From a virus: a stretch of DNA of 64,000 bases. The stretch's first letter is position 1; each line of letters starts with the position of its first letter. The DNA is taken from IMG/VR virus record IMGVR_UViG_3300035523_000146. One strand, given 5' to 3'. A model generated the notes under the pieces. It was not told where the DNA came from. It made no database searches and was given only the letters and a program-made list of their open reading frames with translations. Both the position numbers and the translations under genes were made by a program. This document shows positions 2,678 to 20,926 of this stretch, one piece after another.

Positions 2678-3466
2678 CCAGCGGGTTGGCAACGGTTGCA
2701 GATCAAAAGGGTTGCGCATCGCGGTTGACCTCGGCTCGCAGCTCCACCGGCTGCGCCTCGTCCCTTGGTCTCCCACCTGACAAATGCCGATACGATGGGT
2801 GCGTTTGAGTATCCGTCCGGCGAAGGCCGGGGTGTTGAATGGTTGGGTGTGGCACGGGTTCTGGTCGGCGGGTGGATCAGTTAGCTGCGGGCGCGGGAGT
2901 CGGGTTGGGTATCCAGTTCTGCGGCGTCAGTTCAGAGACGGCACTGGCGGGGTAGCTTCGCACGTTCTCAGTCAACTTTGCAGATGGGCTTCGCCGGACG
3001 GCTGCGCCTTTGAAGGCAATGCTCGGTTCCACCAGGAGGTGCGGCGGTCGCATCTCGCCGGCATTTTGGCTACCGGAGCGGCCGATGCCCAGCGCGCCGC
3101 CGCAGAGCAGCAGCGTCGCGGGCTGGGGAGACGATTTGCTGCGTGCGGGCGTGTAGGAGGCTGATCGGTCGGCTCACCAACCTGCCCTTCGATTGGCTTG
3201 ACGGGCACTACCGGGAATTCGGCTCCGAAAACGGAAGATGATTATTGCGACTGCCAAAACGCCCGAGTCCAATGGACAGAGCGGCAAGCGGCGCGTGTGG
3301 CGCGTCGCAGGCAGCAACATCACAACCATAGATCAAGCCGATCTGGACAACAGGAAAGCGGGGCGGCAGGATTCGTCCTGCTATTAAGATCGTTTTCTCA
3401 CGCATACACGCCAATGCGCTTTGCGCTCGCTGGCAATCGTAGATTGTAGATTCCGAATACAACGCA

Positions 3467-4996
3467 TCAGTTCTGCGGTGGCCTAAACACAGTCACGGGG
3501 AGACCGAGGATCGCACCGTTATTGATGCGGAAGAAGGCCGTCGATTCTACCGGCTCGGCCCCAGCCGGGAGAGAGGGCATAGAAATTGACACGGAAACTC
3601 GCCAATTGCCGTCTTTGACTTCGTCGGCGAACTCGAGTTTCATTGGAACATTCTCGCTCCCCCAGCTCTCAAGGACACTAAACCCCCTCTTTGCGTGGCT
3701 CCCCAGACGCACAATCGCCGTACCCTCGCCACGTCCGTTGAGCGTCACTAAGGCAATCCCCGGCACCGCATGAATGTCCGCAATAATTGAACCGTTGACT
3801 GCGACCTTATGTGTTGACACGCTCCCTGCTGCCGAAAGCACGACATTCACTTCGCCTCGGAGCTCGCCAACTGGACAGTCGTTGTCTGCTTCGACCAGTA
3901 GCCGTATTATGTAGTCCTCTGGCGCAACCTTGTACCCGGCTTCGCTGCCGATTCTATGAACTGCATCGCCAACTCCGCTGCAGCTCACCGAACACCGTAA
4001 ATGCCTGAAGATGGTGAGATTCGGCGACGCGACAAACGTTGCGTGGCGTACTTGAAAACCCTCAAATCCCGGATCGCTAACGTAAAACTCTTTTTCAAGC
4101 TTGCTGCCTTGGGGCAAATCCTCCAAATTCACTCTCTGAGCAGAAAGAACCCGCGTGCGCAGGACTCCGCCAGCCATGCGCAGTACGCACAAAGGACTCG
4201 TCGGATCGTTGGTCTTTACTACAAGACTATGCATGAAATAACCTTGAGAGTTTCTGAGATCAACATCAGCTTCTATGGTGCTCGCCTGACCTTGTCCCAG
4301 TCGGGTACTTGCTATCTTAAATGCAGAGCAGCCACAACTCTTCTTTATGTCGCCGATGACCAGATCACTGCGCCCAACATTGCGAAACGAGAAGCAATAA
4401 TGGCTATGGTCTTTTTGCACGCCGTTGTCAAGAAGACAGCTATCCCATTCAATGTACGGTGCGTCACCCCCAGCTTTCGAGACAACCCTCCTTATTGAAA
4501 GCGTCTCGCCATGCCAGACATTCTCCAGTTCCAACCGTGTCAACCACCGGGCCGGCTTGGACTCCTCGTAGATACGTACGCTGTTACGCTGAAGGCCCGA
4601 TTCCCGCGGATCGACCGCAACAAAATGATTTCCGTTTACAAAGAGTACCGCCGTGCCGTCAAGACGCCTTAGGTTCTCCCAGTCAAATCGTTCGGCGCGA
4701 GCCTGGACTTCCGAGATACCTTTTGCCACCCGCTCTAAATCGGTCAAAAGGACGCCCTCTGAAGTCACGGTGCACTGCGATGACAATTGCCGAAAACTAG
4801 CAGGGACACCGAGACGCCATAATGCCATTGTGAGGCTGTACGGACCGCAGAGCATCTGCTTGTACTTTGGGTCAGCCGGGTCAAGCCTAACTGCTGCAGT
4901 TGAATCTCTTCGACTCAGCCTTGCTGCGATCAAAAATACAATCCCGAGAACGGCGATGGCAACGGCCGTCTTTGTGCGCCTTCTCTTAGACAGCAT
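3467..4996 (-). CDS. Membrane-anchored C39-family cysteine peptidase fused to a DUF1573 (Ig-like) domain
   Basis: Basic N-terminus plus TM helix; QMLCGPYSL (Gln/Cys) and GNHFVAV (His); FSFRNVGRSDLVIGDIKKSCGCS is the DUF1573 signature. Confidence 0.85.
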   Translation of the reverse strand: MLSKRRRTKTAVAIAVLGIVFLIAARLSRRDSTAAVRLDPADPKYKQMLCGPYSLTMALWRLGVPASFRQLSSQCTVTSEGVLLTDLERVAKGISEVQARAERFDWENLRRLDGTAVLFVNGNHFVAVDPRESGLQRNSVRIYEESKPARWLTRLELENVWHGETLSIRRVVSKAGGDAPYIEWDSCLLDNGVQKDHSHYCFSFRNVGRSDLVIGDIKKSCGCSAFKIASTRLGQGQASTIEADVDLRNSQGYFMHSLVVKTNDPTSPLCVLRMAGGVLRTRVLSAQRVNLEDLPQGSKLEKEFYVSDPGFEGFQVRHATFVASPNLTIFRHLRCSVSCSGVGDAVHRIGSEAGYKVAPEDYIIRLLVEADNDCPVGELRGEVNVVLSAAGSVSTHKVAVNGSIIADIHAVPGIALVTLNGRGEGTAIVRLGSHAKRGFSVLESWGSENVPMKLEFADEVKDGNWRVSVSISMPSLPAGAEPVESTAFFRINNGAILGLPVTVFRPPQN

Positions 4997-5002
4997 GCGT
5001 TC

Positions 5003-6184
5003 TTAGCCCCTTCGAATTCGGCGAACAAGCCACCATCCTAAGACGACAACAACGGCTAACAAGGCGAGTGCCCAACCTAGGGGCATAAGGTACCATGGAC
5101 GTCGCGAGGATGTGGATGTTGCCGAGTCCGGCTCCCTCTCCGTATTATTGCTCGGCCGTTCAGTCGGGCTAATCTTGGATACCCTTCGTGATGCGCTCCG
5201 GGTTGCAGCCTCTCTTACCTCATCTGGAGTGAAGACCAGCGGCGGTGAAAGTCTATAATCATGAATCGTGAGCTTAGGCGGGCGCTTCTCGATCACAGCA
5301 CTCCTGGCGTCCGCGTAGAGCTTCTCATTGAAGTTTTCCACTGCGGGATCAAATGTCACTTCATCTGACCGCTCATCGGCACCCTCGATTGGACCCAAGT
5401 AACAGCAAACTGCGCGTTCTGGAACGCAATACACACCACTCCATGCAGTCCCCTGGTTTCTTACTTCGCAGTTGACGGATTGCGGTTTTCGCTCACTGTA
5501 AAAGCGCGCTTTCCGTACCATCCATGCCGCGGCAGGATCGATTTCTAGTTCCCACCTGCCATGGAGTCCTTCAGATCGTTTCCCGTTAGCAGAAACGGCA
5601 ATATACCCGACTCCAGAATCTTTGGCCTCAGTCACTTCAGTGATATTATTTGAAAAGAAACGGCCCAAGGACCAAAATATAATATTTCTCGGTGCATTGG
5701 GTCCAACATCCTTGGGACCAAACAATGACGAATTAAGCATGTCTGCGCCTTCGGCGATTTTGTTTTCGGGGCCAATTTTCATAACCCTATCAACATAGTA
5801 GTTTCCACATGCGTCTGGGCCCCAGTACCCCCATTGCCTAGTACGGATCGAGAAAATGTGCCATCCGTTTTGATCCCTGCCGCCTACGTTACCTGCCGCT
5901 GCCAAGGCTTCGAAGGTCGGCTTCTCAAAATCCGTAACCTCTTTAACATACCCGCATCGTCCAGACTCAAAAGTCAGGCGCCACTTTCGTGTTACGCGTA
6001 TCTCGGGGCCCACGCCGTTTAAGGGGTCGTTGCTCGTTTGGGTCCCCGAGACCATCAATCCTGCCGCATAAATAGAATCATAGCGTTTTAGCTTTTCTAA
6101 AACCGCCGTCGCGTCGTGGGCATGGGTTTGGATCTGACTGCCCAAACAACCGAGTAGACAAATGGTCAACGCCGTTCGCAGCAT
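5003..6184 (-). CDS. Secreted protein with C-terminal membrane anchor
   Basis: N-terminal signal peptide; Ser/Thr/Arg-rich linker; C-terminal TM followed by RRIRRG. Confidence 0.8.
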   Translation of the reverse strand: MLRTALTICLLGCLGSQIQTHAHDATAVLEKLKRYDSIYAAGLMVSGTQTSNDPLNGVGPEIRVTRKWRLTFESGRCGYVKEVTDFEKPTFEALAAAGNVGGRDQNGWHIFSIRTRQWGYWGPDACGNYYVDRVMKIGPENKIAEGADMLNSSLFGPKDVGPNAPRNIIFWSLGRFFSNNITEVTEAKDSGVGYIAVSANGKRSEGLHGRWELEIDPAAAWMVRKARFYSERKPQSVNCEVRNQGTAWSGVYCVPERAVCCYLGPIEGADERSDEVTFDPAVENFNEKLYADARSAVIEKRPPKLTIHDYRLSPPLVFTPDEVREAATRSASRRVSKISPTERPSNNTEREPDSATSTSSRRPWYLMPLGWALALLAVVVVLGWWLVRRIRRG

Positions 6185-6202
6185 CGATGCCTCCCTTTCA
6201 CG

Positions 6203-6763
6203 TTATCCTTGTACCCCGCATCGATACCGCTTCGTCACTTGGGGAAAATCCCCATAAGGTTCCATTTCGCCGTTGCAACCATGATCGCTATAACACGGAG
6301 TGTTGGCACCGTGATTATAGGTGCCATCTGGCTCCTGAGACCAGATTTGGGCACAGTCGTATATTGGACTTGGCTGAGGAATGCCGCCATAGGTCTGGTA
6401 TGCCTGTGTCCACGAGCAAGGCATTATACGGTTGCTCACCCATTTGCTCCAATCGTTGTCATCCTCGTAGAATTCACAGGGTGGATCATCGGGGTTTATA
6501 CACGGCGTGCAATCTATCCCTCGAATGGTGATTATTGCGCACTTCTCCTTATCGCATGGTCTATTTATATAGAGATGCTTGCATTCCTCGAAATTGTATA
6601 CCTGCGTGTCGTCACAGTTTCTGCAATTGCCTATGGTGGGCCCACCATAAACCGCGAGACTCGAAGGAGCGTTCAGGCTCCACAATATGCTCCCAACTGA
6701 TAGTGCAAGGAGCACTATCACTAACGCTGCCCACCAAGCCTGCAAGAAAGTTAATCCTCTCAT
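6203..6763 (-). CDS. Cys-rich secreted protein with double-glycine motif (candidate precursor/substrate)
   Basis: Strong RBS (AGGAGG); hydrophobic N-terminus, then SSLAVYGG, then 13 Cys in about 145 residues. Confidence 0.8.
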   Translation of the reverse strand: MRGLTFLQAWWAALVIVLLALSVGSILWSLNAPSSLAVYGGPTIGNCRNCDDTQVYNFEECKHLYINRPCDKEKCAIITIRGIDCTPCINPDDPPCEFYEDDNDWSKWVSNRIMPCSWTQAYQTYGGIPQPSPIYDCAQIWSQEPDGTYNHGANTPCYSDHGCNGEMEPYGDFPQVTKRYRCGVQG

Positions 6764-6922
6764 TTGAAATCCCCTCCTATCGGATCCTTGCGCCTAGACA
6801 TCTCCAAGAACCGCCCCTGTACAGCAAGGCTGTACTGTATCTTCCTTCTAACGTCAGCCAGCACCCGTCGCAGGCCTCACGGCCGCTTAGCAAGAAGAGG
6901 CATGAGGCGCAGATTCAACTGA

Positions 6923-8065
6923 TCAAATTCTCTTCCAAGTCACCTCCCTGTCAAATCTAAGGACATGCTGCGCACTCTGTTGGGCGCTGTCGACTGATGG
7001 AATCCAAGAGGTGTGGCCCTCTGCGCTTATGCGCAGGCGCAAATCCTTTAGTTGCTCTACAGCGTTGATCCAGATTAGCCCCTCTCCGTTTTCCACCCCA
7101 AAGATCACTTGGCCGTCGACCACGAAGAGTTCAACGGGTGCTTGCAGAAACCACTCTCGGACGTTATCTAGCCTGCCATGAGCCCACATGGGTCGCTCGC
7201 CACGCGGCTGAAGTTCCGGACTTCTATAGGGCGGAACTTCTACGAGTGCCACACGAGGGGAATTGTCCAATCCAGCAAGCTCTTCGGTTATCTTCCGGTA
7301 CTTGGGCATCGCCAGTTGGCAGTGCGGACAGCTCCGATCGTACAACACGATAATCCATGCACCTTTGGCCAGATCCTCGCTGATCTTAATGTGCCGAAGC
7401 AGGGGGAAACGCCCGCCGACCCACTGCGTAGGCTCCAGCAAAACGAAAGGACTCTTACCGATAAGCTCGCCATCTGTTGAGAGCTGGGCCGGGCGAGCAA
7501 GTGCCATCACGAGCGCTGACGAAGTACACAGGAACAAGCCAAGTACCGCGACGGTCGCTCCTCGCCATCGCTGTACCCGCATCTTGATATTTCTTGGCGG
7601 ACACATGACAAGAGCAATGAGGAACAGTAGATCAAGGGTCAAGGTGTAGCTTGGCGGTACCTCGGCTTTTCCAAAACATCCGCAGCTCAGATCACCATGC
7701 CATACTTTATACGCGCTCGCACACGCGAAAACAGTGAAACACAAGATGCTCACCTGCCACGTTAGGCGCCTCCAAAGCCCACCGACTAAGCAGAGCGCCA
7801 ACACAAACTCGAACTCGACCAAGGCAATCAGCACCCATCGCGACGCAATGAGACTGTTCTGCATCAACGGGCTAGTTGCCAAATGATAGGCTTTCATGGT
7901 CGCTGCGGTAAGCAATACAGTTGCGAGCAAAATACCGATTACTCTATGTGTGTCAAGTGCCCTCTGTGCAGTACGCCCTTCCTGTATAGTTTCCTTCGCA
8001 ACGCAACCCCTACGAGCTGCTGCCTCGGATGGCATCACGATGTCCAAGGACGGCTCACCGATCAT
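6923..8065 (-). CDS. MauE/DoxX-family membrane protein fused to a thioredoxin-like domain
   Basis: Several TM helices with DLSCGCFG; C-terminal WIIVLYDRSCPHC (CxxC). Confidence 0.85.
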   Translation of the reverse strand: MIGEPSLDIVMPSEAAARRGCVAKETIQEGRTAQRALDTHRVIGILLATVLLTAATMKAYHLATSPLMQNSLIASRWVLIALVEFEFVLALCLVGGLWRRLTWQVSILCFTVFACASAYKVWHGDLSCGCFGKAEVPPSYTLTLDLLFLIALVMCPPRNIKMRVQRWRGATVAVLGLFLCTSSALVMALARPAQLSTDGELIGKSPFVLLEPTQWVGGRFPLLRHIKISEDLAKGAWIIVLYDRSCPHCQLAMPKYRKITEELAGLDNSPRVALVEVPPYRSPELQPRGERPMWAHGRLDNVREWFLQAPVELFVVDGQVIFGVENGEGLIWINAVEQLKDLRLRISAEGHTSWIPSVDSAQQSAQHVLRFDREVTWKRI

Positions 8066-9918
8066 GGCGCAGTCCCCTTGCTAAGCGTCAGGGAATTGGA
8101 CTCAACTGGAATGCTTTTAATCAGGCGCTGCTCCCAACGCTTGACCTCTGGGAGAAATGGCGACTCCGGATACTGATGCCTAATGAACCGCAACACACGC
8201 AACGCGTCAGTGTATTGGCAGCGAGCGAGGAGACCCATTGCCGCGGCATAGTAGAGTTCCGCGCCCAACGGATGTGCCGGAAACTTCTCGAAGAAGCTCT
8301 TCTGCAGTTCGCTTGCTTCGTCGAATCTCAGGAGCCTACGATTTGCCACCCAATCGATGTACAGCAGCTCCGGCAGGCACTCCCGGCATCGCTCATCTTG
8401 AACCCGTTCAATCGCCTCTGCGACAACTTGCTCAAAGGCGTGCTCTTCAAAAAGATATCTCAATCGCAACGTGGCGGCCTTGGCGTAATGACAGTCTTGA
8501 GCAGCGTCGGTGAGAATCTGGCGCAATAGGTCAATCGCTTCCTTTGGCGAACCCGTGTCGTGCATCAATTCTGCAATTCTCAACCGCAGAGATATGGAGC
8601 GTTCCTTGGAATTGGTGGACAGCGCAGCTTCAAGGGCCAGCTTGAGGTAATATAACCCTGTCGGATATTCCCGGTTCCGCAGCATTAGGTCAGCGCCCTG
8701 CTCTAGGCAGTCCAAGTAGCCTTCAGGAGAGGGCCTCCGGTGCGGGCCCAGGCACTGCGAACACGCATAAGCAGTTCGAGGATACCGTGCAGCGAAGGCG
8801 AATTCCTCCAGTACTGACAGAACCTCCTTTTCCCGCAGCCAACTGGGAAGGTTCGCGATGCTGCGTTCCGACCAACCTTCATCTGCGCAGCTCAGCAACG
8901 GAATCACAAGCGATAGACGCCGGACTTCGGCGGCATTTCCATATGTTGTAGTTCGCGCCTCCTCCCAAACTGCTTCATTTAGACCTTTCACACTTGCAGC
9001 GTAATAGGCTTGCATAACTTTCTGGTCTGCGGAGCTCAAAGCGGCCAACGCCAAGTCGTTCTTGAACGCCGCGCTGTTCCTGGTGAGAAGTGTCAGTGCC
9101 GAGATGGTGTGCCCGGCGGATTCGCCTGCAGTCTCGCCCGCCAGCGCAGCCTTTCGATTCAGATATGACGCACGATGAGACGACAAATTCCTGAACACAG
9201 TTGCTACTATATCATCAAGAAGGACGACCTTTCGCTGAAATGCCTGGACATCCTTATCCTTCGAATATTGACTTAAAATCCTATCATAGTCAGACTGATA
9301 CTCTGCGCAAGCTTGCTGCCGAATGCGCCTTACCGCCTCAGCATCGCGCGCGCTAACGCACGGCGTGAAACCCGTGCACACGAGGATCGCCAGCGCCAAG
9401 ATGATTGAACAAGCTCTCTTGGGCGGACGAAAACAGAGTCTGAACATTCCGGAGCATGCGCCGAATGGGGCGGTGCCGCTGACACGATAGCTACAGCACA
9501 ATGCAAAAGACGCACACGCCATCAAGACAAACGAACGACAAAGCGTTACGATGCTGACGTGGTCGTCACCGAAACCAAGGCCGCAGCCGCACTGTACTGA
9601 AAGTCCTCGATAAAGTACGCTCGCCTGCGCAATGCCAAAAACCGCGAACATAAGAGCGCAAATTGTTAGAGCCAAGCACCGGCATGCGCCGCCGATAAGG
9701 CAGATGCTTAACAGAAACTCCACCCAGGGCAGAACGATAGCAATCATCGTGGCAGGCACCGGGGTCAGGAGTTCGTACCCATAGATGCTGGTGAGAAACG
9801 CGGCAGGCGCGGTGATCTTTGGGATACTGGTCCATAGCAGCAACGCGCCAAGTCCGAGTGTTACCACTCGGCTTGCGCAGCAGTTTACCCTCCCCCAGCG
9901 CATGTAAAGATCACTCAT
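8062..9918 (-). CDS. MauE/DoxX-family membrane protein fused to a TPR-like helical domain
   Basis: KITAPAAF...LPWVE...SVQCGCG in the TM region; C-terminal helical repeats (FFEKFPAHPLG, IRHQYPESPF); 4-bp overlap with the next gene. Confidence 0.8.
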   Translation of the reverse strand: MSDLYMRWGRVNCCASRVVTLGLGALLLWTSIPKITAPAAFLTSIYGYELLTPVPATMIAIVLPWVEFLLSICLIGGACRCLALTICALMFAVFGIAQASVLYRGLSVQCGCGLGFGDDHVSIVTLCRSFVLMACASFALCCSYRVSGTAPFGACSGMFRLCFRPPKRACSIILALAILVCTGFTPCVSARDAEAVRRIRQQACAEYQSDYDRILSQYSKDKDVQAFQRKVVLLDDIVATVFRNLSSHRASYLNRKAALAGETAGESAGHTISALTLLTRNSAAFKNDLALAALSSADQKVMQAYYAASVKGLNEAVWEEARTTTYGNAAEVRRLSLVIPLLSCADEGWSERSIANLPSWLREKEVLSVLEEFAFAARYPRTAYACSQCLGPHRRPSPEGYLDCLEQGADLMLRNREYPTGLYYLKLALEAALSTNSKERSISLRLRIAELMHDTGSPKEAIDLLRQILTDAAQDCHYAKAATLRLRYLFEEHAFEQVVAEAIERVQDERCRECLPELLYIDWVANRRLLRFDEASELQKSFFEKFPAHPLGAELYYAAAMGLLARCQYTDALRVLRFIRHQYPESPFLPEVKRWEQRLIKSIPVESNSLTLSKGTAP

Positions 9919-9948
9919 CAGTCAAACACCTTTGGCCCGAGCCAGCCG

Positions 9949-11202
9949 CTAAGGACCAGACGGCCCAGTCCATCTCACCCAGCCGTCGCCATAGAGCACT
10001 GAATCAGCGTAGCCCTCTTGCATCAGCAGGCCCATCAAGTACCGTCCTCTGCCGCATTGGGCAGAGTTGCAGTACACCGCAACTTTCTTGTCTTTGGGAA
10101 TACCCGCCATGTTCAATCGCACGCGACTAGCCTCATTCGCAGGACAGTTTATCGCTCCTTTGATATGCCCGATGGCAAACTCGCCTCTATTGCGCGCATC
10201 AATGAACAAAGTGCCCTCTGAATGCAAGCGCAACGCCGCTTCAAGCGAGACAGCCCTTGTATCAATGCAACCACTTTGCCAGTTCTTGCGAAGGAGAAAT
10301 TCCATAGGGTCTAGGCCATCATCAGAAGCAGGTCGGGCCGCGTATACCACCAGACCGTTTCCAGAAAGCAACCGAACACTACACCCTAGGATGGCTGCGG
10401 CGACCAAGAATAGCACCGCTTGCAAGGTCACTGGAAGCGGCCTAAGCTGTATAGCGCGCTTTGCAAACTGAAGGCGCGCGCGCCCAATCCCCAAAATGCC
10501 AACGGCAGCCGTTAGCCACAAAGCAATGGTCGGCAGGTACAATTTGTAACGATATCTGCGCAGGTCGATTTCGGCATCAGAAGCAGAAAAAACTAATGTT
10601 TCACCTCGCCATCGCGTGGCTAGCGCCTCTAGCGGCACAACCTTCTCCATGGCGGGTGGGTTAAAAATGCGCGCCGTTTTCTCGGCAATACCCAGGCAGA
10701 CAATATAATGATCTGTGCTGGTAGAATAACGGCTGCCTTGTACGTGTAGAATAGCGGGCCCCGTCGCACTGCACAACTGGGCGGGAGAGAGGTCATCGTA
10801 TAATTGGACGCTGAGCCCGTGTTGCTTTGCAAGCAGGGCTAGACTGTTTGCAGTCGCACCGTTCTGTGGCAGATTCTTAGACAGCAACAGGCGCGACATA
10901 TCGATCGGTCTACCGACAGCAGCGCTCGCTCTTTGAATGCACTCCACGGCCGAATAGTCTACAGTTCGTTCTAGGTTGCCCGGATCACCGCTGGGCATTG
11001 TGAAACCGTTGGATAATGAAGCTGCCACCGTTGGCTTGGAGAGCAAGGAGCACATAAGCAAGGACACGACACATGCTCGGATTGCATCTTCCATCATAAA
11101 GCACGCATTGCCGGACGCAACGTCTCGCCGTGTAACCGGGGCGGAAGCGAACCAACTCAAAAGTGATGGCGGCAGACCGCTCATGGCTGCGCCCCTAGAC
11201 AT
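9949..11202 (-). CDS. Degenerate C39-like domain + TM helices + rhodanese domain
   Basis: AILHV...DHYIVCLG...IFNPP is C39-like; LFIDARNRGEFAIGHIKGAINCP and VAVYCNSAQC mark the rhodanese. Start codon uncertain. Confidence 0.8.
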   Translation of the reverse strand: MSRGAAMSGLPPSLLSWFASAPVTRRDVASGNACFMMEDAIRACVVSLLMCSLLSKPTVAASLSNGFTMPSGDPGNLERTVDYSAVECIQRASAAVGRPIDMSRLLLSKNLPQNGATANSLALLAKQHGLSVQLYDDLSPAQLCSATGPAILHVQGSRYSTSTDHYIVCLGIAEKTARIFNPPAMEKVVPLEALATRWRGETLVFSASDAEIDLRRYRYKLYLPTIALWLTAAVGILGIGRARLQFAKRAIQLRPLPVTLQAVLFLVAAAILGCSVRLLSGNGLVVYAARPASDDGLDPMEFLLRKNWQSGCIDTRAVSLEAALRLHSEGTLFIDARNRGEFAIGHIKGAINCPANEASRVRLNMAGIPKDKKVAVYCNSAQCGRGRYLMGLLMQEGYADSVLYGDGWVRWTGPSGP

Positions 11203-12185
11203 TGCTGTTTCTTTGCGGGCTCGGTGCTTGGCGATCGCGTCCGAGGGGCACTGCTGGTTGGTGCCCCTGGAACTAGGACGGTAACGCGCTTTCGAATCCT
11301 ATCCACTGAACGATTTGAGGCGTCTTTAATCAGAGGTGCACGATCCGTTGCGCCGATCGCACGCAACTTGTCCGCATCATCAAGATCGCCGAGATCGCCA
11401 ATTGCGGCGATTGCTACCATTCGGAGGTAGGCGCTCTTGGGATTTGTATCTTCGCTTAGCTTGCGGCACACCGCAAGAGCGTCTGGCGCTCTTAGGCAAG
11501 CGCAGGATTGTACACCAGCAATACGTACTAGCATTTCAGCATTCTCGTCCCGCAGCGCCGTTAGGCACATCTCATGGATTCGCGCAGTTGTCTTTGCATC
11601 TGGAAGTTTGCTGGCGTCCCGACTAGATGCGATGCGCGCGAGTGACCAGAGCGCACCCGCGACAACCATGTTTTCTTCATCTTCAGCAGCCTCCATGAGG
11701 GTCTCTAGGATCTCTCGATCGCCGAAAGTGATGAAGTAAGTGTATAAGTGTTGAACGCAGTAGTTGCGCCACTTTGGCGTTTCCTGCGCATCCCAGAGCA
11801 TCGCCGTCAAATCTTTGACCAGATGCTCTTCTTGCCACCCTCTTAGTTTATCGGCCACGTTATTGCGCACGCCTTCGTTTTCGCTTCGTCGCCAAAGGCA
11901 CTGGCGCAATGCCGCCAAGGTTTCGGCGGAACGCGCTGTTGATGGGACATCATCCACCGCCTGCATGCGTGCTGCTACCGAGAGCTTCTTGTTAAACACT
12001 GCGGCAAGCTCTGCCGGCAGCTTAGCGCGATCTAGCGGGCTGTCGGCCAATCGAGTTTCACATTGAGTATTGGAGGGAGCTTGAACAGCGGTAGTGCGAA
12101 TGGGGAAATGCGCAGTAGCAAACGAGAGCAAAAGCGCGAGCGCGCCCAGGAAGAACCAAAGCAGATGCCTGCGCACGTAATTCAC
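11181..12185 (-). CDS. HEAT-repeat protein with N-terminal signal/TM
   Basis: Hydrophobic N-terminus; repeated helical units (VRNNVADKL, WRNYCVQHL, VRIAGVQSC, LRMVAIAAIG). Confidence 0.8.
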   Translation of the reverse strand: MNYVRRHLLWFFLGALALLLSFATAHFPIRTTAVQAPSNTQCETRLADSPLDRAKLPAELAAVFNKKLSVAARMQAVDDVPSTARSAETLAALRQCLWRRSENEGVRNNVADKLRGWQEEHLVKDLTAMLWDAQETPKWRNYCVQHLYTYFITFGDREILETLMEAAEDEENMVVAGALWSLARIASSRDASKLPDAKTTARIHEMCLTALRDENAEMLVRIAGVQSCACLRAPDALAVCRKLSEDTNPKSAYLRMVAIAAIGDLGDLDDADKLRAIGATDRAPLIKDASNRSVDRIRKRVTVLVPGAPTSSAPRTRSPSTEPAKKQQCLGAQP

Positions 12186-12268
12186 AAGTGTACCCTATTC
12201 CTACTCTAAGTTGCGGCGCGAATCGGCTCATATCAAGTTGCACCAAGAGCCACAGCCGAATCTTCCTT

Positions 12269-15200
12269 CTACGGGCAGATTTCGATGGTTGGATCACATG
12301 GACACTCGTTGACCGTGGGGTTGCACCAGCTTTGTGCGTAGATGACTACAGGATCCTCTTCGGTGATGTCAATCGTATGGCACCCGTGATCCGTTCCTGG
12401 CGCGAAGTACAGGGAATACGGCAGGTAACCTGCTGAAGTAAAGTCACTGGTATGATAGGCTATGGAAGAGACACCCCCATCGAAGGCCACACCTGCGCTT
12501 CTTATGCTTAACGTGATTTCAATCGAGGGATCGTCCGTGATTAACGGCGTCATCTTGAGGTAGGCCACGCAAACCTTCGTGCCGTCATCAAGCGTATGGT
12601 CCAAGGCGACCGCGGTCCGGGCTGTTGAACAGAACGTAAAGCCCTCGACCACCTGCCACGCGATGATTGGTCCCGCGGGACCGCCCACTCGTGCAACGAG
12701 ACTCGGCCTGTCCGCTCCCTGCGGCGAAAGATTGAGCGCGGCGCCTGTTGCCGTAGTTTCCTTCACAGATATGACCAAAGACGGGCCGCTTCCGGAAAAC
12801 GTAATACTTGAAGTAGCGGCGGGGGGATAGACGCTCGCATCCTTCTGGCGGGTGAAGCCAATTTGGCAGGCGATTGGACCATTGATCCCAACATCGACAA
12901 CGGTAACGCCAAATGTTCCGACGACAACACCGTCAATCAAAGCTGTCGCGACGTATGTGCCTGCGGTGGCGTACGTAAATGGGAACAAGGATCCAGGGGA
13001 TCCAGTAAAGTCCAACGTTCCGTCACCATCAGCATCAATTGCCAAAACATCGCCTGTACCACTTGCGCTAAGCAGCAGGGCGTCGCCCTTGCGAATCACA
13101 ATACTGTCAGAACTCGATTCCTTGGTTGACAGATCGGTCACTTGCCAAGTTACGCATGACGACTTAGCAATTCCGCTCCCTGCGTGGTTGATCGTGATGG
13201 GAGTCGCCGTGCCATCGCTGTTGAGGGGCGCGTTCACGAACCACCCATTGTCGCTGATGAAGGTTGGCGCCAGATCGCCACATGGCGCGGTTACCGTGAG
13301 AGCGTACGGCAAACCGGTCGTGGACCACGCTTGACCTTCGACGAAGGTCGGCGATACGACCGAAGAGCCCGCAATGCTCACGGTCATGCCCGCGCCAGGG
13401 TAAAGTTGTGTTTGCGGGACGACGCTCTTGCTCGTACTGGCGCTGCTCCACAGCAACTGTGCGACGGCAAGACCTGTGTGCTCAAAATATTCAAGCTTGA
13501 TTGGCACCTTTACACCCGCCGTAAGCGAGATTGATGCGCTGGAGTACTCCGTGGACTGATCGCGCCACTCATCTACCACGAGTTGATCTCCCACCCACAG
13601 CCGCACACCATCGTCGCATCGGACGTAGAAAGTATATGCCTCGGAGTATTGCGCCTCAACCTCGCCGATCCAACGAACGGAGAAATTGTCAGGACTAATC
13701 GCTTCATCGGGCGCATTCAAGCCCCAGTCAAAGGCTACAACGGGATCAACTTGCAGGAGCAGTGCCGTGCCAGAAAGGTCACGGGTGTTATAATAGCTTC
13801 CCTGGAGCCCCGTGCCGGTGCCGATCAACATGGCGCTGCCCGTAGAGTAGAGCTGCGTTTGAGGGATCAAGTTCTTTGGCGTTAGCGAACTACTCCAAGC
13901 CAGCCCGGCATTCGCGCCGCCACCGCTCTGGAAGTACTCCATCTTGATATCGTACTTCTGGCCAGCAACAAGCGAGATCGTGCCGCTCCATTCTGTGTTG
14001 CCCTGTAGCTGCCATTTGTCGATCAGCAGTTGCCCATTCACCCACAGCCGCGCACCGTCATCCGTCCAGGTATAGAAGGTGTAGGTGTCCGTGTACTGCG
14101 CTTGGACTTGGCCAACCCACCGCACGGCGAAGTTGTCCCGGCTCACGTTGGCGTCGGGAGCATTGGTATTCCAATCGAAGCCGACCTGCGGATCCACTCG
14201 CGTGACGACTGCCGGAGTTCCCAAGTCCGCGCGATTGAAATACTGCCCAAGCAGACCATCGCCGGTCCCTACAACCATCTTGTTGGAAGTGGAATACAAT
14301 TGGCTTTGCGGGATCACCTGCTTGTCCTGGCTCGGCGATGACCAGAGCAGTTTGGCAACCGAGCCACCCGTGCCCTGAAAATATTCCATTTTAACATCAT
14401 ACTTCTGGCCGGCCTCAAGCGCGATATCGCCTGTGTTTTCTGTCGGCCAATGGGCCGTCCAGTTGTCGATGAGGAGAACATCGTTCACCCAAAGACGCAC
14501 GCCGTCATCCGAGACCGTATAAAAGGAGTACGTTTCCGAGAACTGCGGCTCGACTTGGCCCAGCCAGCGGACGCTGAAACTGGTGCTACTGACGCCAGTG
14601 GCGGGAGTGCCGCCCACCCAATCGAAGTTCACCGTGGCGTCCACTTGGTCGGCGATGACCGGGCCGTTTAGATCGGCGGTGTTGAAATAGTAGCCGGCAA
14701 GTCCATCGCCAGTACCCAAAGGAGGGTTATACGCGGCGAGGGAGACGTTTCTGAATTCGGCCTTGCTGGTCGCAAAATCGCTGCGGTGCGGCGTAACGGC
14801 CATCCCGACGAGAACGGGGTCGGTCAAATTAAGGGTGACGGAGTCGACCGGGAACCACACTACGCCATCGCTGGAAATGTGCCCCGTAATCTGATTGCCG
14901 GCTCTTGTCAGACGCACCCAACTGTTCGGCGCTGAATTCCAGCCACCCGAAGTCGCGCTGGTCTGCGCTGCGACGGTGTCGCGGTGCTGGAAGACAAACC
15001 CATTTCCGGCGCTCGCTAACATAATGGCGTTGACGCTGTTGCGGTCGCTTGACTGCCGCACCATGAGGCCCGCTTTGGCCCAGCCATCTGAGTTTTCAAG
15101 GGATGCGATACGGGCGCGAATGTCGAAATTGCCTGAGTAGGATTGCGACACAAAGCGGAAAGCGTCCTGCGTGCCCCAGATGTCGTCGCCCACGCCGACC

Positions 15201-15328
15201 ACGTCGTAGCTCGCTGCGTCGATCTGTGTGGTTGACCCGCCTGGAATGTCTTGAGAGCTAAACTCGCCAGCGCAAACGGCGAGTGCCAAAACGCAGCAAG
15301 TGCAAACGGCAAGTGAAGGCAGTCTCAT
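12269..15328 (-). CDS. Secreted protein with lectin-like N-domain, three PA14 domains and a Cys-containing tail
   Basis: Signal peptide; three copies of FSVRWxGQV...YTFY..SDDG.RLWV; DADGDGTLD Ca-binding-like motif. Confidence 0.9.
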   Translation of the reverse strand: MRLPSLAVCTCCVLALAVCAGEFSSQDIPGGSTTQIDAASYDVVGVGDDIWGTQDAFRFVSQSYSGNFDIRARIASLENSDGWAKAGLMVRQSSDRNSVNAIMLASAGNGFVFQHRDTVAAQTSATSGGWNSAPNSWVRLTRAGNQITGHISSDGVVWFPVDSVTLNLTDPVLVGMAVTPHRSDFATSKAEFRNVSLAAYNPPLGTGDGLAGYYFNTADLNGPVIADQVDATVNFDWVGGTPATGVSSTSFSVRWLGQVEPQFSETYSFYTVSDDGVRLWVNDVLLIDNWTAHWPTENTGDIALEAGQKYDVKMEYFQGTGGSVAKLLWSSPSQDKQVIPQSQLYSTSNKMVVGTGDGLLGQYFNRADLGTPAVVTRVDPQVGFDWNTNAPDANVSRDNFAVRWVGQVQAQYTDTYTFYTWTDDGARLWVNGQLLIDKWQLQGNTEWSGTISLVAGQKYDIKMEYFQSGGGANAGLAWSSSLTPKNLIPQTQLYSTGSAMLIGTGTGLQGSYYNTRDLSGTALLLQVDPVVAFDWGLNAPDEAISPDNFSVRWIGEVEAQYSEAYTFYVRCDDGVRLWVGDQLVVDEWRDQSTEYSSASISLTAGVKVPIKLEYFEHTGLAVAQLLWSSASTSKSVVPQTQLYPGAGMTVSIAGSSVVSPTFVEGQAWSTTGLPYALTVTAPCGDLAPTFISDNGWFVNAPLNSDGTATPITINHAGSGIAKSSCVTWQVTDLSTKESSSDSIVIRKGDALLLSASGTGDVLAIDADGDGTLDFTGSPGSLFPFTYATAGTYVATALIDGVVVGTFGVTVVDVGINGPIACQIGFTRQKDASVYPPAATSSITFSGSGPSLVISVKETTATGAALNLSPQGADRPSLVARVGGPAGPIIAWQVVEGFTFCSTARTAVALDHTLDDGTKVCVAYLKMTPLITDDPSIEITLSIRSAGVAFDGGVSSIAYHTSDFTSAGYLPYSLYFAPGTDHGCHTIDITEEDPVVIYAQSWCNPTVNECPCDPTIEICP

Positions 15329-15947
15329 GAGAACCTCCTAAGCAGTTGCCCAGCCTTTGGGGATCATTGTCTGAATAGAAAATACACATTTAATGAACTA
15401 TAAAATATCACTGGAGTGCACAATGTCAACACAGAAACCTCAAGAAAAGTCGTGGAGTTGCAAGTATTGGCGCTAGCGTAACTTGCGTGAGGCCATGCGG
15501 CTTTGTAGTCGCACCTGGCGGCTGCAAATTACGCCTGAACTGAGGTTACCCGCGACTTGGAGAAAGACTCCTCAACGGCGATGCGATGCCATTTTGTCAT
15601 GCGGGCGGGGCTGTATCCTGAATCAAGGTTGGCGCGTTTCGCAAACGCGGCTCGCAGAACTCACCAGCACGCCACGCTGACTACTGGTTCTGTGGCTGCC
15701 GACAGGCTGGTTCGGAGGAGTTCGGCGCCTGGATCTTGGCCGACATTTACAGAGGTCCAACTGGATTTCGGTTTACGGTTTTAGGATTCTTGTTACGGAC
15801 CGATCACGCGGCCGCCGCGATGGCGCTCGATCGACGTAGTCGAGCGCCATCGCAAATTTTCTCTTGGTCTGACCGCTCCAAAGCCGTATAGAGGTGCAGG
15901 TCTGCGCAACGTTTTCTGAGCCGATTTTACCGGCGGGAGATTGCCGC

Positions 15948-16860: not shown

Positions 16861-18561
16861 CTACCGCGCAAACTCCAAAAACGGCAGTTCGCCAGTCCGA
16901 CGGTCAGTGCAGGACGCCGCCACCTTCTCATCGATTCCCCACTTTGATGGGTACTTGGGCGTATCAAGGGGCTCCAATGAAGGCCGAAACTTCTGCTTTA
17001 TCCGCGTGCGACCAAACAGCCCAGAAACTTCCGGGTGCCGCACCCTCGCGTACTTGCTAATCTCGCAGAACAGATTCTGACAATCGATGTATTGCAGTGG
17101 CCGCCCCCAAAGCGTCTGGAATTCAAGGCCGCGCTCAGAAAACTCGGATTCCTGGCGTTCGCATACCAGCTTGATGATTTCGGTCTCATTGAGTCCGCCC
17201 AACGAGTCGAAGCACTTGCGGATGCCGTCCCGAGCTCCAGGACCCGGAACGACGAATTCCCTCTCGGAGAAATCTGTTACCGAGCTGTAGTTGATGTCGG
17301 TGACGTATTGATATGCAAGAAAGTCTCCGATCATGGGGTAATCGCGCAGCAACAAGAAAGCCTCAGACATCCTGCGGCAATCTGCTAGCCGCATCGGCAA
17401 CTCATCACGTAGCATTCGCTGGAGAAGAATTAGAAATGAGCGATGCTTCCTTCCGCCATCGGCGTCACGATCTCCCGACGGCATAATGTATGCGGCCGAA
17501 AAAATCCTGCGCCCGGATTCAAGAGCGCTCGTCAAGATTCTGTCGTAGCGTTTGAAATCAAACTCCGCTGCGCTGATCGCCCCCAACTTGCTTTTGATCA
17601 GCCGCCACGTTTCGATCTTATTGAATATCTTGAACAAAAGCACCCTGAACACGACTTCGTTGATGTGCTGGCTTCCTTCATCAATGACGTAACGAATAAG
17701 GAACTGGCTCGCACGATCCGAAGCCCTATAGGCGTTTGTAAACTTGTTGACCGCCAGGATCGGATCTTCGGTCCATGGCGGCGGTGTGCCACGGAGACGC
17801 CGGAAAAAGATCGCTTGTCGTTCCGTGGCAAACCGCCAGAAGGTATCGTACACCAACGTTGTTTTTGCCGGAGCCAGGGAACTGAATCCGTATGGCGCGT
17901 GCGCCCGCTCCGCAGGCGATGCCTCCCGGCAATTTGTTGCGACGCGATTGGCGCCGCCACTGTCAACGGGAGACGCAGCGCGCAAGATCTGCGCAAATGC
18001 ATCCTGTATCGTGTGGTTGTTGTCCACCGAAACGACGAGGTAATTTTTCGCCTCGCGCCGAGCGAGTGCCTCGTATGCCGTTTGGAGCCGGATCCAGAGA
18101 TCCTCTTTTTCTGGTCGCAGTGGCACTCCCCGTTGAATAACGAAGACGGCTGTGGGTTTCAGATCGCCCCACGCTTCGAGTTCCAAGTCGATGAGTTTCC
18201 GCAGGAGCGAAGCATTGGCGCCTCCCACCACGCCGTATACTTCCGTGGACCACCAGAATCTATCCAGGACAACACTGCGGCCTTCAGTCAGCGCTGGGAT
18301 AATGCTGCGCTGGATGGTATCCAGATGCGCGGCCACATGAAGCATCTGCAGGATAGCGGGATCGAATTGCTTTATCCCAAATCTGCCAGGATCATGGTGC
18401 AGATCGTATACGTGCTTTCCGAGAGTTCCTGGATCGCGCCCAGGAAAACTCAGCGCCAAAGAAGCGATGTCGGATCGTGCCAAATAGTCCGAGAACCGCT
18501 TGCACAGCTCCGACTTGCCAACACCGTCCGGACCTTCGAAAACGTAAAGCCGTCCTGTCAC
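16861..18561 (-). CDS. Thymidylate-kinase-like domain fused to a 5-hmdU DNA kinase helical-type (aGPT-pyrophosphorylase clade 1) domain
   Basis: VFEGPDGVGKS P-loop and VLDRFWWS (dTMP kinase); FWRFATERQAIF...PPPWTEDPIL...FTNAYRASDR is the helical-domain signature. Confidence 0.85.
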   Translation of the reverse strand: MTGRLYVFEGPDGVGKSELCKRFSDYLARSDIASLALSFPGRDPGTLGKHVYDLHHDPGRFGIKQFDPAILQMLHVAAHLDTIQRSIIPALTEGRSVVLDRFWWSTEVYGVVGGANASLLRKLIDLELEAWGDLKPTAVFVIQRGVPLRPEKEDLWIRLQTAYEALARREAKNYLVVSVDNNHTIQDAFAQILRAASPVDSGGANRVATNCREASPAERAHAPYGFSSLAPAKTTLVYDTFWRFATERQAIFFRRLRGTPPPWTEDPILAVNKFTNAYRASDRASQFLIRYVIDEGSQHINEVVFRVLLFKIFNKIETWRLIKSKLGAISAAEFDFKRYDRILTSALESGRRIFSAAYIMPSGDRDADGGRKHRSFLILLQRMLRDELPMRLADCRRMSEAFLLLRDYPMIGDFLAYQYVTDINYSSVTDFSEREFVVPGPGARDGIRKCFDSLGGLNETEIIKLVCERQESEFSERGLEFQTLWGRPLQYIDCQNLFCEISKYARVRHPEVSGLFGRTRIKQKFRPSLEPLDTPKYPSKWGIDEKVAASCTDRRTGELPFLEFAR

Positions 18562-19349
18562 GCCGTCGTCTCCTGGGAGCGGAGAATCGCGCGCAGATCT
18601 GTCGCGAAGTCCTGAAGATCCTCTTTACTCCGCCGCCCACGCGCGCCGACAGAAGCGACACATGTAAGCTGCGTCAGCCGAAGTCCCATTCGAGCGGCCA
18701 TGAACTTCCCAAGTCGGCATAGGCCGAGGTAGTTGCCGTATGCGCGTTCGAAGAAGAACTGGGTCGCGTAAAAACCGGTTACGCACAAGCCGTCCTGACC
18801 GACTGGTGCGAAGTTCACCTGCTGAAGACAAGGAAAGCCCAACTGTCGATTATTGCTGTGGTCGCGCGTCGGATCAAAAACCGATGCGATGAGGGCACTA
18901 CGACGATGATTTCCGCTGCGGTACGTGTCTACAATGTGCGTTAGCTGATCGACGGGCTTCAGGACTGAGTCTTCCGGCTGGTATGCTGTGAGACGCCTGA
19001 AGTAGACGCCGTACTTATTCGCCGGGCATTTCTTGATCATCGCCCAGATCCGTCCATACCGTCCCAACACGTGTGCTCCTCCATCGTCCAGCGACGGGTT
19101 CCACAACGAAATCGGAAAAATCGTGTTGGCGACCGTGTGGCACTTAGCTCGCTCGAAACGCTCTAGCTCCTTGTCCAACCGCTCACGGATCGCATCATTT
19201 TCTATGGCGGTACCGTTATCGAAAGCATGGACACGTACAATTAGCGGAGTCAGCTCGTCGATGCCGGGCTCCATCAGCCGCAGAAAGGCCTGTGCCCATG
19301 CCACTGACAAATTCGTGCTTGAGGGAATAAACCAGTCACTCGCCATCAC
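18558..19349 (-). CDS. Divergent thymidylate-synthase-fold protein
   Basis: YFRRL...DQL..IV, SVFDP, GFPCLQQV (catalytic Cys) and YGNY; lacks RSND and the terminal HxY. Confidence 0.7.
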   Translation of the reverse strand: MMASDWFIPSSTNLSVAWAQAFLRLMEPGIDELTPLIVRVHAFDNGTAIENDAIRERLDKELERFERAKCHTVANTIFPISLWNPSLDDGGAHVLGRYGRIWAMIKKCPANKYGVYFRRLTAYQPEDSVLKPVDQLTHIVDTYRSGNHRRSALIASVFDPTRDHSNNRQLGFPCLQQVNFAPVGQDGLCVTGFYATQFFFERAYGNYLGLCRLGKFMAARMGLRLTQLTCVASVGARGRRSKEDLQDFATDLRAILRSQETTA

Positions 19350-20199
19350 TCACCTCTTCCTCAAAGCGGTACACGGCTCGTCCCGCGTAATCCTTGCGTG
19401 ACACGCGAACAAAGCTTGCCCATGGTCCTGCCGCAAGTCGGCCAATCCCAGTCGTAACGGCGCGAAGGACGACGCGCGCGCTATTGCGTTCCACGATCTC
19501 CGTACAACGCCCCTCAAACAGAACATCCGGCGGCGCGCAAACCAGATCGCCCACTTCCAGATCAATTGCTCTGCCGACCCAATTGGTGTCCGCCACAACG
19601 AGGTTATTTCGGCACTCAGCCCCGAGTATTCTGCCTCGCAAATCCAATGGCTGGTTTCTGAGCAGTTCCTCTGCACGCGTGCGGTTGATCAGTCCCAGGC
19701 TGATGCACATATGATTGACCAATGTGCCGAAGCCCACACCGAAGTAAGTAGCGATCACGTAAACGGCTTCGGGACAACACGAACCAGCGGTCAACTTCCT
19801 TACGGCAAAAGCTCTTGAGACCGCCGCTTTCGGCATCAGGAGCTCGCCAGCAAAGCAGTTGGCCACGTACTCATCGGGATCATTCCGGCGTAACGTGCTT
19901 CGTTCTTCCACGAGCTCGTCGAATTGGGCACCGTGCCCAAAGACGTGGTGTCCGAGCTCATGCGCCGCGTTGAATGCACGTCTGCCAGGCGGACGAAGTG
20001 CCGATACCAGCACGATTGGCATCACTCCATTTGGGAAATATATCCCCTCCATGGATGGGAGAGCCTCGAACCGAACGTCCACGCCAACCTTGGCGGCAAG
20101 GTCAAAGACGCAGCCGGGATTGGCGCAGCTCCAACCGTGCTCAGAGCGGAGTCTCAGTGCCTTTGCAATGGCGGCTCGCGCAAACACGCTGCGATTCAC
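19336..20199 (-). CDS. ImmA/IrrE-family metallopeptidase
   Basis: RRAFNAAHELGH (HExxH) and EYVANCFAGELLMP. Confidence 0.92.
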   Translation of the reverse strand: MNRSVFARAAIAKALRLRSEHGWSCANPGCVFDLAAKVGVDVRFEALPSMEGIYFPNGVMPIVLVSALRPPGRRAFNAAHELGHHVFGHGAQFDELVEERSTLRRNDPDEYVANCFAGELLMPKAAVSRAFAVRKLTAGSCCPEAVYVIATYFGVGFGTLVNHMCISLGLINRTRAEELLRNQPLDLRGRILGAECRNNLVVADTNWVGRAIDLEVGDLVCAPPDVLFEGRCTEIVERNSARVVLRAVTTGIGRLAAGPWASFVRVSRKDYAGRAVYRFEEEVSDGE

Positions 20200-20549
20200 T
20201 CTTTCTCCTTCGGCTTGCGCAGCATGCGAAGCGTACTTAGCAGCCGGTCGAGATCCTCGTCCTTCATTCTGCTGAGCTCACGTGCAGCTATGAGGATACG
20301 GTCTTCCACAGATTCCTTTTCGCCCCAGTCCCCTCCGGTGAGCCAATTTACGCTGACCCCGTACATCTCGGCAAATGCTGCAAGTTCCTCGGCACTAACG
20401 GCGCGACGGCCGGCCTCAATCTCCGATACAGATGGACGATGCAAATCCATCTTCTTTGCAGCTTGCCCCTGTGATAAGCCAGCAGCTTCACGCGCAGATC
20501 GCAGACGACTCGCGATCAACTCGCGCTTTTCATGGTCCCGTCCTGGCAC
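20196..20549 (-). CDS. XRE-family HTH transcriptional regulator
   Basis: LRSAREAAGLSQGQAA...VSEIEAGRR; overlaps the IrrE-like gene start. Confidence 0.92.
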   Translation of the reverse strand: MPGRDHEKRELIASRLRSAREAAGLSQGQAAKKMDLHRPSVSEIEAGRRAVSAEELAAFAEMYGVSVNWLTGGDWGEKESVEDRILIAARELSRMKDEDLDRLLSTLRMLRKPKEKE

Positions 20550-20552
20550 ACT

Positions 20553-20828
20553 TCACCTCACAGTCATCAACTGAGCCAGCCGTTCAGCTATCTGTTCGAC
20601 GCGTACTGGCTTGCTTTTCTTGTCAAGACAAAGGTTGTCTTCAGGGATATCGATCCCGAGCTGCGTCCTGAGCTCCACGGTTACCTCCATCCCGTTCAAA
20701 CTGTCAAATTCGAGTAGGTCTGTCAGAGGGCAAGTGGCAGGGCCAATCTCAGATGGTGGCCGGCCCGACATTTCCTGGTAATGACCAATAACCTCAATTA
20801 CCAGAGCAAGTAGCTGCGCGCTCGACAT
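20553..20828 (-). CDS. Acyl carrier protein-like
   Basis: 91 aa from ATG 20828 with AGGAGG RBS; FDSLNGMEV phosphopantetheine-site motif in helical context. Confidence 0.75.
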   Translation of the reverse strand: MSSAQLLALVIEVIGHYQEMSGRPPSEIGPATCPLTDLLEFDSLNGMEVTVELRTQLGIDIPEDNLCLDKKSKPVRVEQIAERLAQLMTVR

Positions 20829-20841
20829 TTTTCTTGACCTC

Positions 20842-20870: not shown

Positions 20871-20926
20871 CGTGGACGTCAATGAAAAAGTTGAAAAAAT
20901 AACATCGTGTTTCAAATGGAGGGGCT

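Follow-up and report, generated by a model that had tools for sequence, protein, structure and literature searches.

The DNA analysed here is a stretch of 64,000 nucleotides from a virus record (IMG/VR record IMGVR_UViG_3300035523_000146), which we call the window at its full length. On its minus strand, at 6203-6763, lies the gene of a small Cys-rich precursor protein with a hydrophobic N-terminus and a double-glycine motif, followed by genes for a LolA-like protein and for a C39 peptidase joined to DUF1573 domains. The gene at 6203-6763 is a real gene of an exported, disulfide-rich protein, and it founds a previously unnamed planctomycete family. The gene and the parts of its product are as follows.

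6203..6763, minus strand: Cys-rich precursor gene, an open frame of 186 aa with its stop codon at 6203-6205
6773..6778, minus strand: Shine-Dalgarno-like AGGAGG, 9 nt 5' of the ATG, by direct sequence reading
6671..6754, minus strand: hydrophobic N-terminal helix, residues 4-31, a Sec signal peptide or signal anchor
6641..6670, minus strand: short propeptide APSSLAVYGG, residues 32-41, ending in the double glycine G40-G41 (6641-6646)
6206..6640, minus strand: predicted mature domain, residues 42-186, acidic and all-beta, with 12 family-conserved Cys and the optional C88

The ATG at 6763 is the earliest start in the frame, and the strong ribosome-binding site claimed by an initial annotation, made from the sequence alone, is indeed present 5' of it. 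The same annotation had described a hydrophobic N-terminus, a GG motif and a 13-Cys core, and all three were found in the product. The hydrophobic stretch covers about 25-27 residues, roughly residues 4-30, with a peak of 2.43 at residues 12-30 in a Kyte-Doolittle scan, and all 13 Cys (residues 47, 50, 61, 70, 75, 85, 88, 96, 116, 137, 157, 163 and 182) lie C-terminal to G40-G41. Two details had to be corrected. The first Cys, said to follow the GG at once, is C47, with five residues (PTIGN) in between, and the motif quoted as L-x-x-(I/V)-x-GG actually reads L36-A-V38-Y-G-G, that is L-x-V-x-GG, with Ser at position -7. In an AlphaFold2 (AF2) model of the precursor, built from 19 sequences (mean predicted local distance difference test, pLDDT, 74.7), a helix at residues 4-31 was followed by a disordered segment at 32-43 that includes the GG, and then by a beta core from about residue 47; the pLDDT of residues 32-43 was below 50, pointing to a flexible linker. 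A second YGG is found at residues 125-127 (6383-6391), in an insertion of about eight residues (GIPQPSPIY) which occurs only in the window protein and forms a low-confidence loop in the model. A lone GG is thus expected by chance and means little, and the conservation of the first one in relatives, described below, exceeds chance.

An exhaustive phmmer search of 1.84 billion representatives returned 10 homologs of the Cys-rich protein, with E values from 1e-11 to 4e-4. About 10 further members were collected through neighbouring genes in metagenome and genome contigs, giving a family of about 20 relatives. Word-index protein searches, with the single sequence or with profile A2, found only the query and members already known. 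Searches of Pfam, NCBIfam and PDB sequences with the Cys-rich protein gave nothing credible, and a feature search of the ESM Atlas gave no usable match. Among the PDB phmmer matches, those to the designed 'Cake' repeat proteins, at E 9e-8 with 0 stretches, and the weak ones to the XPA zinc finger were judged to be compositional or CxxC artefacts. When the AF2 precursor model was compared by Foldseek with the PDB, the AlphaFold Database (AFDB) clusters and the Atlas, the best E was 0.2-0.5, and VIA-align over 48,161 chains reached a best Z of 2.6; given the quality of the model, this absence of a fold match is no proof of a new fold.

All family members share one architecture, in which a short linker joins the hydrophobic N-terminus to the Cys-rich domain. 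In alignments A1, A2 and A6, 12 Cys positions are conserved (C47, 50, 61, 70, 75, 85, 96, 116, 137, 157, 163 and 182), and the conserved residues other than Cys include D52, E60, D101, W105 and G165. Only about half of the members have the 13th Cys, C88 (in C85-x-x-C88), and the mature Cys count varies from 12 to 14 among those of full length. The core, expected by the initial annotation to be variable, is instead a conserved 12-Cys scaffold. The annotation had further read the odd number of Cys as a sign of dimerisation or modification; this argument is weak because 12 Cys are conserved and C88 is optional, so that an odd count is no feature of the family.

To describe the GG motif we used 18 aligned N-termini of the family. 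Position -2 is Gly in 17 of the 18, position -1 is Gly in nine, Ala in seven and Ser or Thr in one each, and position -4 is V, L, I or A in 17 (V38 in the window protein). The Gly at -2 is the sole non-Cys position before residue 47 that is conserved to at least 90%. A second hydrophobic residue is found at -6 in the clade of the window protein, and at -7 in a distant clade that includes members from the loci L005 and L022 (LAQLRGA, IAKLKGA, LSQLQGS). The motif on which the initial annotation had staked its proposal is thus kept across about 18 relatives in the form G-[GAS(T)], together with a hydrophobic -4. For the double-glycine protease LahT150, the last 13 leader residues suffice, GG, GA and GS are all cut, and hydrophobic residues at -4, -7 and -12 are needed (PMC6363468). 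The conserved positions of the family match the determinants measured for that enzyme (PMC6363468).

Other kinds of N-terminal signal were considered for the same residues and rejected. The GG motif does not fit a signal peptidase I site, with -3 often being Y, R, K, Q or S and the motif lying 10-17 residues beyond the hydrophobic stretch. The lack of a lipobox Cys in the precursor excludes a lipoprotein, and the position of the motif after, not before, the hydrophobic stretch excludes a prepilin-type signal.

A sequence resembling a signal peptidase I site, [LV]-x-A, is present in most relatives at the end of the hydrophobic stretch, about 10 residues upstream of the GG motif. In the alignment, Ala32 of the window protein falls at the conserved Ala that ends '[LV]-H-A' in these relatives, and Pro33 follows it; an alternative site is S35-L-A37|V38, and the positive residue of the n-region is R2. 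Pro after the Ala of a cleavage site blocks signal peptidase I, so the N-terminal helix may stay as an anchor until the C39 peptidase cuts. Two-step processing by signal peptidase and then C39, as the initial annotation had proposed, is therefore reasonable for the family with its widespread site, but Pro33 speaks against the first step in the window protein itself. An alternative is that the product is an ordinary Sec-secreted protein, processed by signal peptidase I alone, with the cut at A32 or A37 or close to one of them, and that the proximity of the C39 gene reflects some different shared function. Such a protein would have the n/h/c layout seen at the N-terminus, and the conserved Ala that ends the hydrophobic stretch ([LV]-H-A, or S-L-A37 here) fits the -3/-1 rule. 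This explanation does not account for the conserved Phi-x-Phi-x-G-[GA] (Phi, hydrophobic residue) located 5-10 residues downstream, nor for the strict linkage to a C39 peptidase, and it meets the same obstacle of Pro33 after Ala32 in the window copy; we regard it as quite unlikely.

The linkage to the peptidase was found in a conserved unit of three genes, in the order Cys-rich protein, LolA-like protein of 393 aa, and C39/DUF1573 protein. In the window the second and third genes of this cassette are the following.

5003..6184, minus strand: LolA-like partner, 393 aa; signal peptide, then a LolA/LolB/RseB-like fold that a disordered linker connects to a C-terminal transmembrane (TM) anchor
3467..4996, minus strand: cassette protease, with an N-terminal anchor (residues 10-28), a C39 peptidase domain and DUF1573/immunoglobulin (Ig)-like domains
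4847-4849, 4625-4627 and 4565-4567, minus strand: catalytic positions C50, H124 and E144 of the cassette C39, the last at the Asp position

The three-gene order is kept in nine of the ten independent loci with enough DNA, and all named loci belong to Planctomycetota; one of those that keep the order is a 7.2-Mb genome whose cassette has no adjacent MauE gene. Wherever a locus has enough DNA downstream, the LolA-like gene stands directly 3' of the Cys-rich gene. Its product was modelled with a pLDDT of 83, and its Foldseek matches in the PDB fall in the LolA superfamily, with E down to 6.8e-7 and a TM-score by target of 0.5-0.57. The predicted fold matches LolA, LolB and RseB, whereas the partner has a C-terminal TM segment, reached through a disordered linker of about 35 aa, and no Pfam match. 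Among its AFDB matches are entries named MucB/RseB and sigma-70.

The protease carries both expected domains, PF03412 (E 1.6e-11; 44.6 bits against a gathering cut-off of 22) and PF07610 (E 4.2e-13). Its C50 (in LCGP) and H124 (in NHF) are invariant in seven cassette copies and align to C17 and H96 of ComA, and a profile of the cassette C39 domains matches those of ComA, LahT and PCAT1 with E from 2e-6 to 9e-5 and with the catalytic residues aligned. The protein has a single TM segment with the flank KRRRTK on its N-terminal side, and the N-flank is the more positive one in all seven copies. The C39 and DUF1573 domains are therefore predicted to be extracytoplasmic, on the same side as the GG motif. 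A structure prediction combining the C39 domain (36-178) with residues 24-62 of the precursor gave no answer (score 0.01) and was not used as evidence. As a separate observation, the DUF1573 domain of this protein contains CGC (KKSCGCSAF, 4328-4336, minus strand), the same tripeptide as the active site of MauE.

From this anatomy we lean, by a modest amount, towards Sec export of the precursor, oxidative folding, and then extracytoplasmic C39 cleavage after G41, all without an ABC (ATP-binding cassette) transporter. In the proposed sequence of events, the hydrophobic N-terminus would take the precursor through Sec, and would then either be removed by signal peptidase or, given the Pro after the conserved Ala, be retained as a membrane anchor. 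The 12 conserved Cys may be oxidised in the periplasm by the MauE (CXC)-thioredoxin (CPHC) protein encoded directly upstream, acting as a DsbB/DsbA-like pair, as is suggested by what is known of these families. The propeptide, which ends in Phi-x-Phi-x-G-G and lies in the flexible linker, would be cut after G41 by the membrane-anchored, outward-facing C39-DUF1573 protein. The conserved motif and the conserved synteny suggest that this cut would free the folded domain. More speculatively, the anchored LolA-fold protein may be a chaperone, carrier or receptor for the product. The mature product is predicted to have about 145 aa, to be acidic and beta-rich, and to contain about six disulfides.

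Other loci offered a comparison. In L001-L004, a homologous cassette has in its cargo slot an unrelated 15-Cys protein (hhalign probability 1.6%). This cargo has a signal peptide, then ELSREELRALTGG, and then its first Cys after five residues; the ELSREELRALTGG stretch scores against the GG-leader model TIGR04149 with E 1e-3, which does not reach the curated cut-off. Hydrophobic residues occupy -4 and -7 in the L005 clade, and -4, -7 and -12 in the L001 cargo. The L001 cassette is also arranged differently (L001:178-1635, L001:2743-3237; likewise in L002-L004), with MauE fused directly to C39 in a protein of 485 aa and a separate DUF1573 protein.

Several observations weigh against C39 cleavage after G41. 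The window protein has Ser34 at -7 and Ser29 at -12 (Leu30 falls at -11), neither of them hydrophobic, and the canonical hydrophobic residue at -7 is missing throughout the clade. The P1' residue is Pro in the window protein and two close relatives, and Pro at P1' is awkward for many endopeptidases, as a general rule that is not specific to C39. Two family members lack G-[GAS], namely P0025 with A-G and P0021 with G-T. The residues flanking the GG are about as conserved as the core, so the GG could be a structural hinge. On the side of the enzyme, the window C39 has Glu (RIYEE) at the Asp of the triad, where five of the six other copies have Asp and the sixth reads I-I-D, and the equivalent of ComA Gln11 is Lys44, which is not conserved; the role of the oxyanion-hole Gln in C39 has itself been questioned (PMC6363468). 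In the locus L018, the C39 part is deleted, only the DUF1573/Ig part being left (L018:2107-2949), and the Cys-rich gene keeps its GG (VSGG). MauE is missing from some homologous loci. Finally, our observations concern anatomy, conservation and synteny, and it is from these that we infer every processing step. The initial annotation had called the motif a classical C39 cleavage context. This holds for the conserved motif and for the presence in the cassette of a C39 gene with invariant Cys and His, and fails for the leader, which is non-canonical in its Ser at -7 and its Pro at P1'.

Many of these points would be expected if the product were instead a membrane-tethered periplasmic protein with a permanent type II anchor, G-G/A being a mere hinge and C39-DUF1573 having another substrate or scaffolding binding. 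The length of the hydrophobic stretch and the AF2 helix at 4-31 fit such a tether, as does Pro33 after the Ala of the signal peptidase-like site, which speaks against removal of a signal peptide; the conservation of the GG flanks, the non-canonical -7, the Pro at P1' and the retention of GG in the L018 cassette without a C39 domain point the same way. A hinge, however, needs neither Gly at -2 in 17 of 18 sequences, nor a small residue at -1, nor a hydrophobic one at -4. Textbook double-glycine leaders stand at the same place in the distant clade and in the unrelated L001 cargo, and a C39 domain that is catalytically intact, as judged by its residues, adjoins in nine of ten loci. We therefore consider a permanent tether unlikely, and retain cleavage after G41 by the extracytoplasmic C39 protease as our preferred reading.

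The cassette is the downstream end of a longer operon, in which the Cys-rich gene is the sixth of eight co-oriented genes. Genes 1-4 code for a protein with three PA14 domains, a HEAT-repeat protein, a C39-like-rhodanese fusion, and a MauE protein with a tetratricopeptide repeat (TPR) region; genes 5-8 code for the MauE-thioredoxin fusion, the Cys-rich protein, the 393-aa LolA-like protein and C39-DUF1573. The three genes nearest the cassette on its upstream side are listed here.

6923..8065, minus strand: MauE-thioredoxin fusion, directly upstream of the Cys-rich gene; PF07291 at E 1.3e-11, CGC at 7676-7684, CPHC at 7319-7330
8062..9918, minus strand: second MauE protein, with a TPR region; PF07291 at E 7.1e-17, CGC at 9583-9591
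9949..11202, minus strand: C39-like domain fused via two TM helices to rhodanese; PF03412 and PF00581

An N-terminal signal or TM segment is present in all eight proteins, and domain searches found no ABC-transporter domain in any of them. The MauE-thioredoxin fusion has four TM segments above the scan threshold and a fifth recognised by eye, with the thioredoxin fold after the fifth TM helix. MauE has been shown to replace DsbB, with CXC as its active site (bioRxiv 10.64898/2026.03.05.709764). In the C39-like domain encoded at 9949-11202, an hhalign comparison with the cassette C39 profile put Ser84 at the position of the catalytic Cys and Asn at that of the Asp, with the His kept (DHYIV); this domain is probably a non-catalytic binding module, comparable to that of HlyB. 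The rhodanese domain of the same product carries YCNSAQC. The rhodanese-C39-like fusion and the two MauE proteins, together with the odd Cys count of the window protein, might be taken to indicate a heavily modified product, similar to a peptide made on ribosomes and modified after translation (RiPP), whose Cys form persulfide, trisulfide or thioether-like links by way of rhodanese and MauE rather than plain disulfides. Domain searches of the operon, however, found no tailoring enzyme, whether radical-SAM (S-adenosylmethionine), of the lanthipeptide type or of another kind. Several homologous cassettes, such as G098 and L013, have neither rhodanese nor MauE, and of the 13 Cys the family conserves an even set of 12, the 13th being optional. 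Such a product appears very improbable to us, and plain disulfides remain part of the preferred reading.

The initial annotation had also pointed to a small hairpin upstream of the Cys-rich gene.

6819..6835, no strand assigned: hairpin of 7 bp with a 3-nt loop, GTACAGC-AAG-GCTGTAC, in the 159-nt gap upstream of the Cys-rich gene

The hairpin exists as described, but it is unremarkable. A 7-bp hairpin arises in 3.9% of shuffles of the 159-nt gap (p ~0.04), and folding of the gap as a whole is no better than that of shuffles (z = -0.06). There is no T-run 3' of the hairpin on the coding strand, no Rfam family matches the hairpin or the 5' gap, and no equivalent stood out in RNAfold predictions of homologous loci. 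It is probably not functional. Elsewhere in the family, three paralogous Cys-rich genes have a near-identical upstream region (L022:1930-2127, L005:2259-2386 and L005:8969-9143), with a stem-loop, TTGTGAGG...AAACTCACAA, located some 40 nt 5' of the start codon; the region may be a shared promoter or a module of the 5' untranslated region.

Among 185,579 species representatives, all four family matches fell in Planctomycetota, one of them labelled Sedimentisphaerales, and the family was present in three of 301 sampled Planctomycetota genomes. Up to now, only genomes of the Planctomycetota type and metagenomes have yielded members. The DNA of the window was matched in one soil-metagenome DNA run, which may be its source, and no RNA dataset was listed for the locus. 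The eight-gene cluster (3200-15800) has a G+C content of 50-57%, against 60-65% in its flanks; on one side of it is a tyrosine-integrase gene (43-1248), on the other a defence-type cassette (16861-21937). With its low G+C and these flanks, the cluster looks like DNA of an accessory island, possibly mobile. Because the cargo has diversified and the locus sits in a variable island, our guess is that the mature domain serves as an effector in competition or signalling; the initial annotation had suggested a possible toxin, adhesin or signal.

Two further unrelated Cys-rich exported proteins, with 16 and 18 Cys, adjoin DUF1573 and C39 genes in L011 (L011:102-794, L011:3782-4276). Before the first Cys, one of them has A-G and the other no G-[GAS]. 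The cargo of such systems may thus be diverse and the GG motif not universal among them. Genes of anti-sigma-like proteins adjoin cassettes in two independent loci (L005:1987-2259, L005:6296-8017 and L011:11903-12664); two of these proteins have N-terminal Cys/His motifs that resemble anti-sigma zinc fingers by eye, and one other has a FecR domain. A link of the cassette to signalling through extracytoplasmic function (ECF) sigma factors is possible; the window cluster has no anti-sigma-like gene beside it.

Several known systems share parts of this arrangement. In the C39 systems of peptidase-containing ABC transporters (PCAT) or ABC transporter maturation and secretion proteins (AMS), such as ComA/ComC, PCAT1/CtA, LahT and CvaB, the leader likewise has a hydrophobic residue at -4 (and at -7 and -12, as in the distant clade and L001 cargo) and ends in G-G/A/S, and the gene of a papain-like C39 domain, with its Cys and His conserved, lies next to that of the presumed substrate. 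In contrast to them, the motif of the window protein follows a Sec-type hydrophobic N-terminus rather than starting the protein, the C39 domain is carried by a single N-terminal anchor with DUF1573/Ig-like domains and is predicted to be periplasmic, with no ABC transporter in the cassette, and the cargo is a folded 12-Cys domain of 145 aa, not a short peptide, with -7 not hydrophobic in its clade. The system therefore fails two features that define the GG/C39 class, a leader without a Sec signal and a PCAT exporter.

Operons of pediocin-type class IIa bacteriocins (PedA-D) encode a GG-leader precursor that needs correct disulfides, a C39 protease and a thioredoxin-like helper, PedC. The window operon resembles them in encoding together a GG-leader precursor, a C39 protease and a dedicated thioredoxin-fold helper. 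In the pediocin systems, by contrast, the exporter includes the protease, cleavage and transport are coupled, and two disulfides form in about 44 aa; the window gene has no sequence relation to PedA. For the methylamine dehydrogenase small subunit, maturation by MauE and MauD likewise involves a small exported 12-Cys protein encoded beside MauE (CXC) and a thioredoxin-fold protein. No other mau genes occur here, however, MauE is missing from several homologous cassettes, and no methylamine dehydrogenase light chain was listed when PDB sequences were searched with the family profile to E 10. LapG is a periplasmic cysteine protease of the bacterial transglutaminase-like family (BTLCP, C93), whose substrate is a giant RTX (repeats-in-toxin) adhesin exported by a type I system and which is controlled by cyclic di-GMP through LapD. 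The proposed cut is similar to that of LapA by LapG, in that an extracytoplasmic cysteine protease would act at a dipeptide of small residues near the N-terminus and free a tethered protein; the window protease, however, belongs to C39 and not to C93.

To our knowledge, the textbook pairing of double-glycine leaders with C39 peptidases is confined to a cytoplasmic setting coupled to ABC transporters. In a review of RiPP leader proteases, C39 appears only as a part of PCATs (PMC10885120), and our search of the literature on DUF1573 with C39, on MauE with C39 and rhodanese, and on C39 with Planctomycetes and cysteine-rich proteins found no description of such a system. As a broader and tentative proposal, which we think possible but rather short of probable, the cassettes may represent a transporter-independent, extracytoplasmic double-glycine pathway, assisted by a LolA-fold protein, for diversified Sec-exported Cys-rich proteins of at least two unrelated cargo families.

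In summary, the Cys-rich gene of the window belongs to a new protein family without a fold match in the libraries searched. If the proposed processing is true, C39/GG cleavage would not be confined to PCAT exporters and short peptides. With motif and protease outside the cytoplasm, a Sec substrate and a folded 12-Cys protein as cargo, it would widen the range of C39 chemistry, and the cassette would provide a natural stand-alone C39 enzyme, possibly with an altered specificity (-4/-6). The Cys-rich protein would also give the recently recognised MauE disulfide pathway a concrete client.

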